Source: Minisyncoccia bacterium (GTDB taxonomy: Bacteria; Patescibacteriota; Minisyncoccia; Phycocordibacterales; PALSA-1337). Taken from it: DNA of 64,000 nucleotides. The notes under the pieces are model-generated. The model saw only the letters and a list, made by a program, of their open reading frames with translations, made no database searches and had not been told where the DNA came from. Below are positions 10,221 to 50,000 of the stretch, in pieces. The stretch lies in the NCBI GenBank assembly GCA_049997795.1, contig JBEKVT010000001.1, positions 312,241 through 376,240 on the forward strand, written 5' to 3'. Both the position numbers and the translations under genes were made by a program. Positions within the stretch are counted from its first letter, which is position 1; each line of letters begins with the position of its first letter.

Positions 10221-10293
10221 GCGCGTATAGCTCAGTTGGTAGAGCACACCACTGATACTGGTGGGGTCCTTGGTTCGAATCCAAGTACGCGCA
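10221..10293 (+). tRNA. tRNA-Ile (anticodon GAT)
   Basis: Cloverleaf read by hand: acceptor GCGCGTA/TACGCGC, D-arm GCTC-AGTTGGTA-GAGC, anticodon stem CACCA/TGGTG with loop CTGATAC (GAT), T-arm CTTGG-TTCGAAT-CCAAG, discriminator A, CCA not encoded. Confidence 0.85.
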
Positions 10294-16401: not shown

Positions 16402-16441
16402 ATTGCCATACTAACCCATTTCTTATATCATTGAAAGCATT

Positions 16442-16636
16442 ATGATCCAGCGAAGAACCGAATCGGCCAGCGCTCTGTGCGTCTGTCCCGAATGCAAGAA
16501 CGTGATCGACCTTTCCCGATACCCGAACCTGGTGCCCGGCATGGTCATCGAGTGCAATCACTGCGGCATGACGCTCCTCGTGAAAGAGATAGCAGGAAGC
16601 GACGTCAAGACCGAGGTCGTGGACGAGGGAAAGTGA
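16442..16636 (+). CDS. small zinc-ribbon protein, LysW-like pattern
   Basis: 64 aa; CPECKNVIDL...PGMVIECNHCGMTLLV matches the CPxCx2[IL]xL...GExVxCxxCGxxLxV arrangement of LysW-type carriers but lacks the C-terminal EDWGE tail. Confidence 0.4.
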   Translation: MIQRRTESASALCVCPECKNVIDLSRYPNLVPGMVIECNHCGMTLLVKEIAGSDVKTEVVDEGK

Positions 16637-16652: not shown

Positions 16653-18062
16653 TCACTGCAGCCTTTTCACAGTCTCTTCTATCATCCCGCGGAAGCCGTG
16701 AGAGCCGAGGAAGGCGATGACGTCTCCCGGCTCGCGTTTTTCCGTGATATGGCTGACCAGAGCCTCATCGTCTTCGAGATAGACGGCGTTCTTGTGGCTC
16801 TTTCCGATGACTGATGTCAGCTCTTCGCCGTCGAAAGTCTTCTCCGGCTCGTTCGAGTCGACCTTCAATCTGGTCAGCTTCGGGATGACGACCATGTCTG
16901 CATCCCGGAAAGCATTCTTATAAGAGGGCACCGATTCCGGCGTCCGGTTCCCCGTGTTCGGCTCGTAGACGGCGATCACCTTGCCGGAATATATCTCCCG
17001 TAGGTTCTTCAGGACGGACCTGGCCTTTTCCGGCGAATGGGCGATGTCGTCTATGACCGTCGTCCCGCCGGAGAGCGGAGCCTCGAGGCGCTTCTCTAAT
17101 CTCCTCTTCATCCCCCTGAATCCGCGGATAGCCTCGAGTATCTCCTCCGGAGCGATGCCGATCTCCCTGGCCAAGGCGAAGCAGCCGGTCGCGTTCTCGG
17201 CGTTGTATTTGCCGAGGAGCGGGCTTTCGATGTCGTAGCGGAGGTCGCCGTGGATCACGCTCCACGCCAGGCCTCTCTCCGACTGGAAGACGTCTTCATA
17301 TCTGTACTTCGCGCGGGAAGATGTGCCGTAGCTTATGAAGTCCCGGCCGGCTTCGGCGAGCATCTTCGGCGCTTGGTCATCGTCGATACAGGCGACGATC
17401 ATGCCTTCTTTCGGCACTGACCTGATGAGGCCGCGGAACGCCTCGAAGTAGCTCTCTTCCGTCTTGTATATGTCGGCATGATCCCATTTGACGGCCGTAA
17501 GGAGGAGGTGCGTCGGCTTGTAATGGGCGAACTTCGGCCGCTGGTCCCACTTGGCGCTCGTGTATTCGTCTCCTTCGACCACGCTCCATTCGCCGGAATC
17601 GATGGCCGCCGACGGCAGGCCGTCCTGAGTGAGGCCGCCGATCATGTACGAAGGCTCCCGGCCGGCACGGCGGAGGATGTGCGTCAAAAGAGCGCTCGAA
17701 GTCGTCTTGCCGTAAGTGCCGGCCGCCACGATCGAGTTCTTCTTTATTATGAACTCGCCGACGGCCTCGGGATATGATTTGAAAGGGACCCCGTGCTCTT
17801 CCACGTAGGCAAGCTCCGGATTTTGGGTGGCGATCGCGTTGCCGACGACGACGAAATCCGGCGTGCCGTCCGCGATCATCTTCTCGGGATGCCAGCCGGC
17901 GTAATAGGGGATGCCGAGCTTGTCCAAATGGGTCGAGACCGGAGGGAAGAAGCCGGCATCGCTTCCGGTCACTTTATAGCCTTTCTCCCGGAGGGCGGTG
18001 GCCACAGCCGACATGGCCACGCCGCAGATGCCGATGAAATGGACTTTTTGAGGTTTGGCCAT
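16653..18062 (-). CDS. Mur ligase family protein, Mpl/MurC-like (UDP-N-acetylmuramate--peptide/L-alanine ligase)
   Basis: 469 aa; N-terminal HFIGICGVAMSAVATAL...VTGSD signature of the Mpl/MurC N-domain, central GTYGKTT P-loop. Confidence 0.65.
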   Translation of the reverse strand: MAKPQKVHFIGICGVAMSAVATALREKGYKVTGSDAGFFPPVSTHLDKLGIPYYAGWHPEKMIADGTPDFVVVGNAIATQNPELAYVEEHGVPFKSYPEAVGEFIIKKNSIVAAGTYGKTTSSALLTHILRRAGREPSYMIGGLTQDGLPSAAIDSGEWSVVEGDEYTSAKWDQRPKFAHYKPTHLLLTAVKWDHADIYKTEESYFEAFRGLIRSVPKEGMIVACIDDDQAPKMLAEAGRDFISYGTSSRAKYRYEDVFQSERGLAWSVIHGDLRYDIESPLLGKYNAENATGCFALAREIGIAPEEILEAIRGFRGMKRRLEKRLEAPLSGGTTVIDDIAHSPEKARSVLKNLREIYSGKVIAVYEPNTGNRTPESVPSYKNAFRDADMVVIPKLTRLKVDSNEPEKTFDGEELTSVIGKSHKNAVYLEDDEALVSHITEKREPGDVIAFLGSHGFRGMIEETVKRLQ

Positions 18063-18106
18063 GATAAGGCTCTATTTTAAGCCATTTTTCGAACCGTTGG
18101 AAGCTA

Positions 18107-18135
18107 TTGACATACATACTTTTATGATGTATACT
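18107..18135 (+). promoter_or_regulatory. consensus sigma70-type promoter TTGACA -17- TATACT
   Basis: -35 TTGACA 18107-18112, -10 TATACT 18130-18135, about 20 nt upstream of a 43-codon ORF. Confidence 0.6.
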
Positions 18136-18155
18136 TAAAGAGAATTTGAGACACC

Positions 18156-18287
18156 ATGAAAATCAAGCTATTCCTTCTGACGGCAGTGGTCATCGTCGCG
18201 GCAGCCATCACCCTTGGTGCGGCGAGAGTCGTGTCCAATGGTACGGCTGCCAGGAACGCCGCTGTCGATGAGATCATGTCACAGTGA
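18156..18287 (+). CDS. small ORF, 43 aa, hydrophobic N-terminal segment (MKIKLFLLTAVVIVAAAITLGAARVVSNGTAARNAAVDEIMSQ)
   Basis: Below the ORF-track size cut-off and read by hand. Bracketed by a consensus promoter and an intrinsic terminator. Predicted signal-peptide/TM-like helix. Confidence 0.45.
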   Translation: MKIKLFLLTAVVIVAAAITLGAARVVSNGTAARNAAVDEIMSQ

Positions 18288-18305
18288 TCTCCGATCCTTC
18301 TTGCG

Positions 18306-18337
18306 AGCCCGCGCCTCACCGTGCGGGCTTTTCATTT
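18306..18337 (+). terminator. rho-independent terminator AGCCCGC-(10-nt loop)-GCGGGCT + TTTTCATTT
   Basis: 7-bp GC stem followed by a T-rich tract. The stop codon of the convergent minus-strand gene (18316-18318) lies in the loop. Confidence 0.6.
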
Positions 18338-18984
18338 AATATCTCTTTCAATGGTTCGACATCGGTCTGCCACTTCTCGCCGTCGAACCATTCGAGACCC
18401 TCGAACTGGAGCTTGTAAGTATCTGTCGGCCGCTGGAGCGAACCGAGATAGACGTACTTCATTCCGGCACCTTTAGCATATTGGACGGCCCGGATCATCA
18501 TGCCGAGGCCCATGTCTTTCGGCGCGGCGTTCAGGTCGTAGAACGGATAGGAATAGTGCAGGAAAGACGGATCCTGATGACAGATGGCATAGCCGACGAC
18601 GGAGCCTTGTTTGGAGTAGGTCAATAAGACATTGAAATTGCTTTTGGCATGGTCGGTCAAAAGCTCCTTGATCTTGTTGGCGCTCATCACGTCCGGGCCG
18701 AACTTGGCGGCATAGAAATCTTTCGCCATCTTGCCGATGGACCAATCGTACTCTTCCCGCAAGGGGAGCGTGACCGCTTCGATCTCGAGGCCCTCGGTCT
18801 TCTTCAATATCCGCCGGTTCTCGCTCGAGAGCTCGAACTTCGAGATGTCGATCCTGGCCGAGCGCGTTTGGTGCATGACTCCGCCGCCCTTGCGATTGAA
18901 AAGGAAGCCCCGGCCATACATGGCCGCGACCGGCTTCTCGGAAAGGTCGGAGATCGTTTCCTCTTTCCAGTGCAGGTATTCCAT
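18316..18984 (-). CDS. putative aminoacyl-tRNA--protein transferase-like protein (ATE_C/Bpt-like GNAT fold)
   Basis: 222 aa; C-terminal KYVYLGSLQRPTDTYKLQF...W resembles the Ate1/Bpt C-domain motif (YLGY.I..S.KM.YK). A FemAB-like GNAT is an alternative. Confidence 0.35.
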   Translation of the reverse strand: MEYLHWKEETISDLSEKPVAAMYGRGFLFNRKGGGVMHQTRSARIDISKFELSSENRRILKKTEGLEIEAVTLPLREEYDWSIGKMAKDFYAAKFGPDVMSANKIKELLTDHAKSNFNVLLTYSKQGSVVGYAICHQDPSFLHYSYPFYDLNAAPKDMGLGMMIRAVQYAKGAGMKYVYLGSLQRPTDTYKLQFEGLEWFDGEKWQTDVEPLKEILNEKPAR

Positions 18985-20112
18985 TTAATGCAGGGCCAGC
19001 CAGAAGCCGAAGACCACGAAGATGAAGTGGATGACCCAGAAGCGCATGACCGTCCTCTCCTCGCTCCATCCGGAAAGCTCGAAGTGATGGTGGAGAGGCG
19101 CCATCCGGAAGACCTTCCGGCCGAGGATGTAGCGCGACAGCACCTGGATGATGACGGACAAAGCCTCGATGTAGAACATGAAGCCCAGGAAGAAGAGCGA
19201 GCTCAATTCGCCTATGGCCATGGCATTCACTGCCAGAAGCGCGCCCAAGCCCAGAGAGCCGATGTCTCCCATCATGAATCGGGCCGGCTTGATATTGAAA
19301 TAGGTATAGGCCGCGAGCGAACCGGCGGCTATGGCGTTCATGACGGCGATCTCGCCGAAGCCGTTGATCCACGACAGCATGGTCAGGGCGGTGAAGGTGA
19401 TTATGAGCATGCCTCCAGCCAGGCCGTCCATGCCGTCGGCGATGTTGACGGCGTTGGCCGTGAACATGACGACCAGGACGATGATCGGCACGATGAACCA
19501 GCCGGCGTTCCAGGTCAGGTTCCAGGGGAAATAGACGAAATGCCAGGCCGGTCCGAGCTTGTCATATATCCACCAGGCGGTGATGGAGCCGGCGATGAAT
19601 TGGAGGATGAGCTTCTCGTGGACGAAGACGCCCTTGCCGGGCCGCGAGCCGAACCAGACCGACATTCGCTTGAAGGCCGTCCACGGCAGGGTGGCGGCGT
19701 ACCACAGGCGCATCTTCCAGTCATGATGGACTCGGATCAAAGTGAGGACGTGGTCTAGCTTTCTGGACCGCCGCTCGGCGCCATAGACGTTCATGATGTC
19801 GTCGATCATGCCCAGGGCCGCGGCCATGAGCATGATGCCGACCGGCACGTAGGTGAAGCTCCTGGACCAGTCGAAGAGATAAGTGAGCAGGGCGACGGTG
19901 AAGATGACCAGAAGCCCGCCCATGACGGGGGTAGTCGCCTTGTAAGCGTGTGAGCCTAGGGCGGCCAGCTCGACCTTGGCACCCTTCACGACGTGGAAAC
20001 GGGAGAGGAAGCGTATGAGAAGGGGCGCGAGGAGGAAGGCCACGAACGCGCCGAGGATGGAAAAACCGAAGATGTAGGCCAAATCGGCCGTGCCAGTGAG
20101 GAAAGTTATCAT
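18985..20112 (-). CDS. mraY: phospho-N-acetylmuramoyl-pentapeptide transferase
   Basis: 375 aa, 10-TM profile; conserved DD and NAVN motifs and the MAPLHHHFE signature. Confidence 0.9.
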   Translation of the reverse strand: MITFLTGTADLAYIFGFSILGAFVAFLLAPLLIRFLSRFHVVKGAKVELAALGSHAYKATTPVMGGLLVIFTVALLTYLFDWSRSFTYVPVGIMLMAAALGMIDDIMNVYGAERRSRKLDHVLTLIRVHHDWKMRLWYAATLPWTAFKRMSVWFGSRPGKGVFVHEKLILQFIAGSITAWWIYDKLGPAWHFVYFPWNLTWNAGWFIVPIIVLVVMFTANAVNIADGMDGLAGGMLIITFTALTMLSWINGFGEIAVMNAIAAGSLAAYTYFNIKPARFMMGDIGSLGLGALLAVNAMAIGELSSLFFLGFMFYIEALSVIIQVLSRYILGRKVFRMAPLHHHFELSGWSEERTVMRFWVIHFIFVVFGFWLALH

Positions 20113-49678: not shown

Positions 49679-49706
49679 TTGACACCTTATGACGCCTTGC
49701 TATACT
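49679..49706 (+). promoter_or_regulatory. sigma70-type promoter TTGACA -16- (TGC)TATACT
   Basis: -35 TTGACA 49679-49684, extended -10 TGCTATACT 49698-49706, 42 nt upstream of the HTH gene. Confidence 0.55.
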
Positions 49707-49748
49707 TATAACCATCGCACCCGGTCCGATGTCATCACCAATTAAAAC

Positions 49749-50000
49749 ATGACCAATAAAGAGATCCAACCCCACACCGTGTACACTACCGGCGAAACCG
49801 AGGCCTTGCTGAAGATAAGCAGGAGCACCATGAAGCGCCTGCTCAAAAAAGGCCTCATCCGCGCCAACAAAGTCGGCCGCCAATACCGCATCCTCGGTTT
49901 GGAGATCCTGCGCATGGTCTCTCCGGAGACGGAACAGAAGGCAGTGAAGTCATACCTCAAGGTCAAGGAGAAGGCGGTCAGCAAGATAAATAGATGGTGA
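49749..50000 (+). CDS. excisionase-family helix-turn-helix DNA-binding protein
   Basis: 83 aa; YTTGETEALLKISRSTMKRLLKKGLIRANKVGRQYRI matches HTH_17/excisionase-type DNA-binding domains. Confidence 0.6.
   Translation: MTNKEIQPHTVYTTGETEALLKISRSTMKRLLKKGLIRANKVGRQYRILGLEILRMVSPETEQKAVKSYLKVKEKAVSKINRW

Follow-up and report, generated by a model that had tools for sequence, protein, structure and literature searches.

The window analyzed here, a stretch of 64,000 nucleotides, belongs to the genome of a Minisyncoccia/Paceibacterota (CPR) bacterium and contains a 43-codon unit on the plus strand. The flanking Mur ligase gene, the ATE_C-like gene and mraY are all encoded on the minus strand (Table 1). 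An earlier note on this DNA had located the unit between the ligase and the ATE_C-like gene, and all of the sequence elements it described were found where it had placed them. The mraY > ATE_C-like > Mur ligase string was observed in the same order in 37 related genomes; the relatives of the ligase were from Paceibacterota/Patescibacteria MAGs. In the window, the intercistronic gap between the ATE_C-like gene and the ligase is 253 bp, and the 43-codon unit lies within it, antisense to the string. With a single conserved minus-strand string taking in both neighbors and mraY, the unit is an antisense insert in an intercistronic gap. The genes within approximately 6 kb on either side encode RadC, a MurD-like protein, PALP, a LysW-like Zn-ribbon protein, the Mur ligase, the ATE_C-like protein, MraY, an NlpC/P60-like protein, TP_methylase, DUF4015 and several products without a Pfam match. 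The earlier note had expected the ORF to be missed by standard annotation; it has, however, already been predicted by the JGI, NCBI, ENA and Logan gene callers. The exact peptide has been called as a gene on contigs from 34 blocks of a public assembly collection, and its NCBI name is "hypothetical protein ABSF56_01900 [Minisyncoccia bacterium]".

Table 1. Features of the 43-codon unit and its flanks, in positions of the window
Feature	Position	Strand	Remarks
Mur ligase	16653-18062	-	Flanking gene
Conserved ligase-side block	18063-18106	-	Back-to-back with the promoter of the small gene
Putative sigma-70-type promoter	18107-18135	+	TTGACA (18107-18112), 17-nt spacer, TATACT (18130-18135)
Weak Shine-Dalgarno-like GAGA	18148-18151	+	4 nt upstream of the ATG
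43-codon ORF	18156-18287	+	Translates as MKIKLFLLTAVVIVAAAITLGAARVVSNGTAARNAAVDEIMSQ
Predicted local hairpin	18270-18291	+	GAGATCAT-GTCACA-GTGATCTC; encloses the ORF stop codon (18285-18287)
Putative intrinsic terminator	18305-18339	+	10-bp stem (18305-18314 with 18321-18330), loop CTCACC, T-tract
ATE_C-like gene	18316-18984	-	Flanking gene; TGA stop read as TCA at 18316-18318
MraY	18985-20112	-	Part of the same gene string

Two orthologous loci were found. The first, L046, was reached through closer homologs of the ATE_C-like protein; its ATE_C-like protein and ligase are 80% and 92% identical to those of the window, respectively, and a 45-aa gene is present on the opposite strand between the ATE_C-like stop and the ligase start. 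The second, L057, is a 987-bp contig in which the small gene lies just upstream of the ligase start, with the 3' end of the ATE_C-like gene beyond its terminator. When a profile of two of the peptides was searched against 1.84 billion (1.84e9) representative proteins, the only relatives besides the query were P0122 (45 aa) and P0123 (44 aa), the 44-aa third member being found at an E value of 7.8e-12; the two remaining matches were repeat-protein artefacts. The family therefore comprises three roughly equidistant sister species, with the gene at the same site and in the same orientation. The tblastn check that the earlier note had proposed for the peptide was negative among 37 GTDB relatives of the ligase. 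A word-indexed protein search with the peptide alone returned only the peptide itself, and with the two-sequence alignment it returned only the two known members. No relatives were found in viral contigs, phage records or plasmid records, and a six-frame HMM search covering the window and every locus detected no paralog.

Between species pairs, DNA identity was 78 to 93% in the block adjoining the ligase, 66 to 90% in the promoter, 51 to 66% in the ORF body and 83 to 92% in the hairpin plus T-tract. Promoter, start codon, ORF and terminator were all kept in the two orthologous loci, consistent with the complete, self-contained transcription unit that had been proposed for the window.

The predicted TTGACA-17-TATACT promoter of the earlier note is present and scored 11/12 in a consensus scan, the best promoter-like site in the region from 14 to 23 kb. 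Across the 64-kb window, three matches of at least 11/12 were observed versus 0.47 in shuffles, and six of the nine matches of at least 10/12 were intergenic, though intergenic DNA makes up roughly 8% of the window. Two other matches were located just upstream of ORF starts, one at 49679 before an 83-aa HTH ORF abutting an ABC-transporter-like ORF and the other at 16403 before a 64-aa LysW-like ORF. Judged by this excess, by the intergenic placement and by the two matches upstream of ORF starts, consensus sigma-70 promoters seem to be used in this organism. Comparison with the orthologous loci showed an unchanged -35 box and a 17-nt spacer throughout the three species; for the -10 box, L046 has TATACT and L057 has TACAAT, so that both the 16- to 18-bp spacing and the key -10 positions T1, A2 and T6 expected of a sigma-70 promoter are retained. 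An inverted repeat within the promoter spacer (CATACAT..ATGTAT) was considered as an operator and dropped for lack of conservation in L057. Scanning metagenomes with the 20-mer CTTTTATGATGTATACTTAA yielded five unrelated loci, two of which are homologous to each other and resemble promoters of AbrB-like genes.

Transcription would be expected to start at approximately 18142 to 18143. The ATG, which had been put at about 20 nt past the promoter, is indeed 20 nt after the -10 box. The GAGA upstream of it is matched by AGGA at the Shine-Dalgarno-like position of both orthologs in the alignment; SD-like motifs are, however, not enriched upstream of genes in the window, which weakens the GAGA as evidence. 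The first ~38 nt of the predicted transcript, including the AUG, lay outside the main predicted helices in all three species, and some folding models added only short, weak pairings in the start region.

Downstream of the ORF, the hairpin at 18305-18330 was the top terminator-like site in the scan. It reads GAGCCCGCGC-CTCACC-GTGCGGGCTT and is followed by TTTTCATTT. The hairpin with its T-tract thus stood as described in the earlier note, but the stem, given there as 7 bp of G-C, has 10 pairs, of which 7 are G-C. The claim that the stop codon of the convergent gene falls in the hairpin loop also held, the TCA at 18316-18318 being inside the loop at 18315-18320, and the 3' arm encodes the last residues (KPAR) of the ATE_C-like gene. 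The three species retain every one of the 10 pairs, the sole changes in the stem being from G.U to A-U. A G+C-rich hairpin, a U-tract and a structure kept in relatives are the features of an intrinsic terminator. There is no T-run after the hairpin on the minus strand, so the terminator should act on the plus strand only. No plus-strand gene follows the terminator, and for this reason a reading of the ORF as an attenuator or leader peptide was dropped. The local hairpin around the ORF stop codon is kept in L057 and broken in L046, where the encoded EIM survives through synonymous changes (GAG to GAA and ATC to ATT).

Several lines of evidence, all of them small-sample since the family has three members, indicated that the ORF behaves as a coding sequence. 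Its frame is open in all three species, with the same ATG and nearly the same stop (43, 44 and 45 codons), and the indels among the three ORFs are all multiples of three. No other frame is open in all three; a 65-aa ORF on the opposite strand, for example, is not open in L046. Identity by codon position followed the order 2 > 1 > 3, except that one of the three species pairs had equal values at positions 1 and 3. Codon usage in the ORF frame gave a log-odds score of 0.22 per codon. This score ranks at the 31st percentile among windows of true genes and is reached by only 1.9% of off-frame windows; the five other frames scored from -0.90 to 0.01. The three peptides resembled one another more than did shuffles that preserve their composition (z = 5.6; p = 0.004 for the tails alone). 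In simulations of neutral drift at the observed divergence, the probability of retaining both an open frame and an equally strong hydrophobic segment was 0.0003 to 0.005.

The constraint is weak, and the peptide evolves fast. The small ORF had a pN of 0.27 to 0.39 and a pS of 0.52 to 0.74 (pN/pS of about 0.5 to 0.6), versus a pN of 0.035 to 0.048 and a pS of 0.35 to 0.38 for the ligase N terminus, and amino acid identity between species pairs was 40 to 56% for the small ORF versus 90 to 93% for the ligase. The pN of the small ORF roughly matches the pS of the flanking ligase, so that overall constraint is weak, and its own pS exceeds the pS of the flanks. Eight contigs that were picked by exact protein match to the peptide are 99.97 to 100% identical across 3.5 kb and are uninformative for dN/dS within the species. 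An open frame, indels in threes, higher identity at position 2 than at position 3 and host-like codons are together the marks of a protein-coding sequence, here under weak constraint. The earlier note had named lack of ORF conservation, together with absence of a transcript, as the outcome that would count against it; the frame is instead kept in two orthologous loci at a pN/pS of 0.5 to 0.6. At the level of sequence, the comparison thus shows conservation of all of the signals in the unit together with constraint on the protein.

The window peptide, MKIKLFLLTAVVIVAAAITLGAARVVSNGTAARNAAVDEIMSQ, and the two others, MKAKLFLLTMVVVIGAFVALGASKVASGNNATIKTAVIDEIMSQ and MKNFLRLSPIVILIAVGTLLALGMSKVVKPNDATAQTAAINEIMP, share one layout. 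In the window peptide, an MKIK n-region is followed by a 19-residue hydrophobic core, an LGAA-R junction and a polar tail of 19 to 20 residues ending in VDEIMSQ. The n-regions of the three peptides are MKIK, MKAK and MKNFLR, the hydrophobic cores are uncharged and 17 to 19 residues long (Kyte-Doolittle 15-residue maximum of 2.7 to 2.8), and the junctions are G-A-A, G-A-S or G-M-S followed by R or K. The shared motifs are LG[AM][AS][RK] at the junction and [VI][DN]EIM at the C terminus. AlphaFold2 predicted one continuous helix spanning residues 2 to 42 (pLDDT of 87.6). The tail is polar and non-amphipathic, its hydrophobic moment being low (0.05 to 0.24). No Pfam, NCBIfam or PADLOC profile matched the peptide at E values up to 10, PHROGs gave only nonsignificant matches (E = 0.08 to 0.14) to N-terminal hydrophobic stretches, and the literature searched for signal peptides and small proteins of Patescibacteria held nothing of relevance.

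Two established rules, positive-inside and -3/-1, bear on topology and cleavage. By these rule-of-thumb standards, the positively charged n-region, the uninterrupted hydrophobic h-region and the small-x-small residues at -3 and -1 are those of a Sec signal peptide or anchor, the hydrophobic segment being long enough for either a cleaved signal peptide or a permanent anchor. The peptide is therefore most likely, as predicted from its sequence, to be Sec targeted with the N terminus in and the C terminus out, and to be either anchored or cleaved; it is in this sense that we infer export, topology, cleavage and any partner.

The same site was occupied differently in more distant genomes. In the 37 relatives the gap from the ATE_C-like gene to the ligase ranged from -4 to 2773 bp and held rlmH-like genes or unrelated ORFs on either strand, and relatives whose ATE_C-like protein is 72 to 74% identical carried different opposite-strand genes or other inserts. 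A near-consensus promoter pointing away from the ligase was nevertheless present with different cargo in several relatives, scoring 12/12 in L009 and L011 and 11/12 in L012/L041. On the ligase side, the conserved block contains, on the minus strand, a TAAAAT box (18079 to 18074) 11 nt upstream of the ligase ATG and a mini-ORF, ATG-GCT-TAA (18085 to 18077), as well as a small hairpin (plus strand, 18068-18083) within which the TAnAAT box lies. Box, hairpin and mini-ORF recur in the more distant relatives L009, L012/L041 and L014, and L049 keeps only a TAGTAT box. From this arrangement we infer that the ligase-side block would be the promoter of the ligase itself. The site is a back-to-back promoter region with changing cargo, the 43-aa gene being the cargo of one small clade. 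Since the small gene is restricted to its lineage and relatives have different cargo at the site, its location within the peptidoglycan gene cluster is probably incidental.

Taking these observations together, the reading that we favor, and consider reasonably probable on sequence grounds, is that the unit is a genuine gene, transcribed on its own, that codes for a small peptide either inserted into the membrane or secreted. The strong sigma-70-type promoter would start a ~195-nt transcript near 18142, consisting of a 13- to 14-nt leader, the 43-codon ORF and the intrinsic terminator, which would halt transcription before it ran antisense into the ATE_C-like gene. The peptide would be inserted by a Sec/YidC route with its N terminus inside and its tail outside. 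It might then either remain as a single-pass micro-protein or be cut by signal peptidase I after G-x-[AS], which would release a peptide of ~20 residues. The conserved tail may be the part that contacts a partner.

A reading that would dispense with the protein is that the frame is open by chance in a spacer, with function confined to the hairpin at the end of the ATE_C-like gene and to the promoter region, which the unit shares with the ligase. In this G+C-rich DNA the 43-codon frame stayed open in 27 to 39% of drift simulations, ORFs of 41 to 65 aa occur in other frames of the same stretch, and substitutions have accumulated overall at close to the neutral rate of the flanks. Drift would, however, keep both the frame and the hydrophobic segment with a probability of 0.005 or less, only one frame is open in all three species, and gene-like codon usage is found in that frame only. 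The 5' arm of the hairpin is, moreover, outside the ATE_C-like ORF yet conserved. We therefore regard a chance frame as very improbable. A functional role for the RNA, or for the act of transcription, is also unlikely. The unit would then be a cis-antisense transcript or transcriptional-interference module directed against mraY > ATE_C-like read-through; it would uncouple or tune expression of the downstream Mur ligase, and the ORF would be secondary or incidental. The promoter and terminator (66 to 92%) are much better conserved than the ORF body (51 to 66%), a pattern that a cis-antisense RNA would show because its complementarity comes free. The unit is placed exactly in the intercistronic gap of the minus-strand string, the lack of a minus-strand T-run after the hairpin makes read-through plausible, and a divergent consensus promoter is found upstream of the ligase also where the cargo differs. 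The transcripts fold well with the terminator included (z = -3.9, -4.5 and -2.5), and a long consensus hairpin extends across the ORF body in all three species with seven two-sided pair changes, a number reached in 2 of 500 shuffles but inflated by the derivation of the tested structure from the same three sequences. Against this, the folds were not significantly stabler than synonymous-codon permutations (z = -1.1, -1.7 and -0.8), and the L046 fold without its terminator was no stabler than dinucleotide shuffles (z = -0.6). As the permutation test was not significant for any single sequence, selection on RNA structure was dropped as a candidate. The ligase appears to own a conserved TAnAAT box, and the protein-level signals would be hard to obtain without translation. 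No Rfam family matched the unit: the only match at gathering score to Rfam 15 in the whole window was a tRNA at 10221, and at E values up to 10 on positions 17950-18450 only sub-threshold hits driven by the terminator appeared, the best having 22 bits versus a gathering score of 50 and covering the terminator only. The suggestion of a small RNA in the earlier note is thus not borne out, by Rfam or by structure beyond that of synonymous-codon permutations; an RNA role is possible, as a weaker reading than that of a coding gene.

Other readings accept the peptide and assign it a specific activity. It might be a Phr/RRNPP-style pro-peptide, by analogy with those systems, in which a Sec-signal N terminus would lead to release of the C-terminal [VI][DN]EIM and its sensing by a receptor encoded elsewhere. 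The length of 43 to 45 aa, the signal-like N terminus, the small-x-small junction and a conservation that peaks at the very C terminus match the general Phr layout, and a fast-evolving body with a conserved end, as seen here, is typical of Phr-type peptides. The conserved C terminus is, however, weakly defined by three sequences, nothing in Pfam or NCBIfam matches, and no TPR/RRNPP-type receptor was recognized within ~6 kb, where the neighbors include the Mur ligase, the ATE_C-like gene, mraY and other envelope genes; we consider this reading quite unlikely. The signaling peptide suggested in the earlier note may yet be the product, as a small exported peptide, although no receptor gene lies next to the unit. 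A type I toxin-like membrane peptide, held in check by an antisense RNA in the form of the ATE_C-like read-through transcript, would fit a peptide that is small and hydrophobic and has a polar tail, a unit with a promoter and terminator of its own, an mRNA predicted to be well folded and a predicted 5-bp pairing of the AUG with a UUCAU past the terminator in all three species. Yet the antisense strand has no promoter-like site of at least 8/12 in the window or L057 and only three weak (8 to 9/12), nonconserved sites in L046. The 13- to 14-nt leader is predicted to be unpaired, with no long structured 5' UTR to lock the ribosome-binding site, and the gene is single copy, with no paralog in the window or loci. 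No toxin family in Pfam, NCBIfam or PADLOC matched, and export suits the conserved G-x-[AS] junction better than pore formation does. This earlier suggestion now seems highly doubtful. The bacteriocin-like peptide that had been proposed alongside it found no backing either: the peptide lacks a double-glycine leader and Cys, neither an immunity gene nor an exporter gene lies close by, and relative to class II bacteriocins the mature part is ~20 aa rather than at least 35 aa and the neighbors include no ABC/C39 exporter. A combined reading has in our view very little probability. On this reading an exported peptide that evolves fast, serving as a short secreted signal or as a host-interaction effector of an episymbiotic CPR bacterium, would be encoded by a structured mRNA that also acts as a cis-antisense regulator of the mraY > ATE_C-like > Mur ligase transcript; if true, it would make the unit a dual-function mini-gene linking peptide export to the control of cell wall synthesis.

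If the coding reading is right, an uncultivated CPR bacterium has yielded another lineage-specific micro-protein. In the reduced genomes of CPR bacteria, small peptides that are exported or sit in the membrane are poorly charted, and they may act at the envelope or host interface. The locus presents a complete mini-gene that was recognizable from sequence and confirmed with only two orthologs, and the ATE_C-like/Mur ligase site is one at which cargo turns over while a divergent consensus promoter persists. Nothing at the locus contradicts current understanding, and the wider significance is modest.

For comparison with described systems we used what we take to be the closest counterparts of the unit: Blr, MgrB and AcrZ of E. 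coli; Phr-type peptides; the type I toxins Fst/Ldr, Hok and TisB; and the dual-function RNAs SgrS/SgrT, SR1/SR1P and RNAIII/hld. The last of these resemble the unit in having a stably folding transcript of ~200 nt with an ORF of ~40 codons. Here, however, two thirds of the transcript is ORF, a separate base-pairing domain and an Rfam match are both lacking, and the structure does not exceed what the codons account for. The type I toxins share the small hydrophobic peptide with a polar C-terminal tail, the standalone unit and the structured mRNA, and differ in the conserved antitoxin-RNA promoter, longer leader and family match that are missing here, the present gene also being single copy. The Phr-type pro-peptides of Firmicutes are likewise precursors of 40 to 45 aa, in which a positively charged n-region and a long h-region are followed by a small-x-small junction and a conserved extreme C terminus; the 43-aa peptide has no adjacent receptor gene and no homology to them, and its cleavage is predicted. 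The bacteriocin, type I toxin and RRNPP readings fail because the defining features of those systems were not found, and that of a described sRNA fails because there is no Rfam match; a cis-antisense or dual-function reading is a minority possibility. Blr, MgrB and AcrZ are also shorter than 50 aa, with one hydrophobic helix and a short polar tail, and small single-pass membrane proteins are often lineage restricted and encoded in intergenic gaps. The 43-aa peptide differs from these three in being without similarity to described families and in having its own consensus promoter and terminator, antisense between envelope genes. It most likely belongs, judging from its sequence features, with the orphan bacterial micro-proteins, as a product already annotated as hypothetical and confined to three species.

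The cell-wall cluster contains a hot spot of gene turnover, located between the ATE_C-like gene and the Mur ligase. The length of this gap ranged from -4 to 2773 bp (related loci L009-L051), and across Paceibacterota its cargo included rlmH-like genes and small membrane proteins, with further examples listed in the table. When the 43-codon ORF of the window was compared with its orthologues in loci L046 and L057, synonymous divergence (pS) was 0.52 to 0.74, versus 0.35 to 0.38 in the adjoining ligase. This excess may stem from uncertainty in the alignment, a relaxed codon bias, local hypermutation or past replacement of the ORF body.

Features in the window and in related loci (promoter scores are matches to the TTGACA and TATAAT hexamers; the middle number is the spacer in nt)
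Feature	Location	Strand	Remarks
Small ORF	window 18156-18287	+	43 codons
Conserved block before the Mur ligase ATG	window 18063-18106	-	44 nt
ATE_C-like/GNAT protein	window 18316-18984	-	weak Pfam matches: ATE_C, Acetyltransf_6
Second small unit	window 16403-16636	+	promoter TTGCCA-17-TATCAT, 10/12
LysW-like zinc-ribbon ORF	window 16442-16636	+	64 aa
Promoter TTGACA-16-TATACT and downstream region	window 49679-50000	+	11/12
Promoter TTGACA-18-TATAAT and downstream stretch	L009 4370-4960	opposite ligase	12/12
CTTTTATGATGTATACTTAA	within L055 1340-1391		metagenome contig
CTTTTATGATGTATACTTAA	within L056 243-295		metagenome contig
Two-TM ORF (small membrane protein)	ATE_C-like/ligase gap of L049		75 aa
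Secreted ORF	ATE_C-like/ligase gap of L047		125 aa
HhH-GPD and methyltransferase	ATE_C-like/ligase gap of L048

The sequence immediately upstream of the ligase was compared among the window, L009, L012, L014, L041, L046, L049 and L057, and the block ahead of the start codon was found to be more conserved than synonymous sites. It contains a TAnAAT box 11 nt 5' of the ATG, a mini-ORF of two codons (ATG-GCY-TAR) and a small hairpin whose stem sequence varies among relatives (GGCT/AGCC, GGCC/GGCC, GGCTTAA/TTAAGCC) with pairing retained. The block may serve as a start-stop element or as the ligase's own promoter, in which case the mRNA would be nearly leaderless. In L009, the nearest GTDB relative, a perfect promoter is directed away from the ligase; the approximately 560 nt downstream of it yielded neither a convincing ORF nor an Rfam match (E value up to 1), and may represent an undescribed noncoding RNA or a decayed gene.

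A second small unit of the window, set between minus-strand genes, carries the zinc-ribbon ORF, which is also kept beside the ligase in L048. Besides the promoter of the 43-codon ORF, the window has a single intergenic 11/12 promoter, followed by a helix-turn-helix ORF of 83 aa, which overlaps with the beginning of an ABC-transporter gene. The 20-mer CTTTTATGATGTATACTTAA of the window promoter was also present in two unrelated metagenome contigs, at the same spacing from a preceding TTGAC(A/G) box and in both cases upstream of AbrB/MazE-like genes. The shared sequence probably arose by convergence towards a strong promoter.

The C-terminal residues of the ATE_C-like protein, KPAR in the window and L046 and KPAL in L057, are encoded by the 3' arm of the terminator of the small gene; alignments to more distant relatives end before this tail. 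In nearly all related loci retrieved, the ATE_C-like gene sits with mraY on one side and the Mur ligase on the other, and its product has more than 1800 homologues (E value of <1e-40). One possibility is that this protein acts as a FemX-like peptidoglycan transferase dependent on aminoacyl-tRNA.
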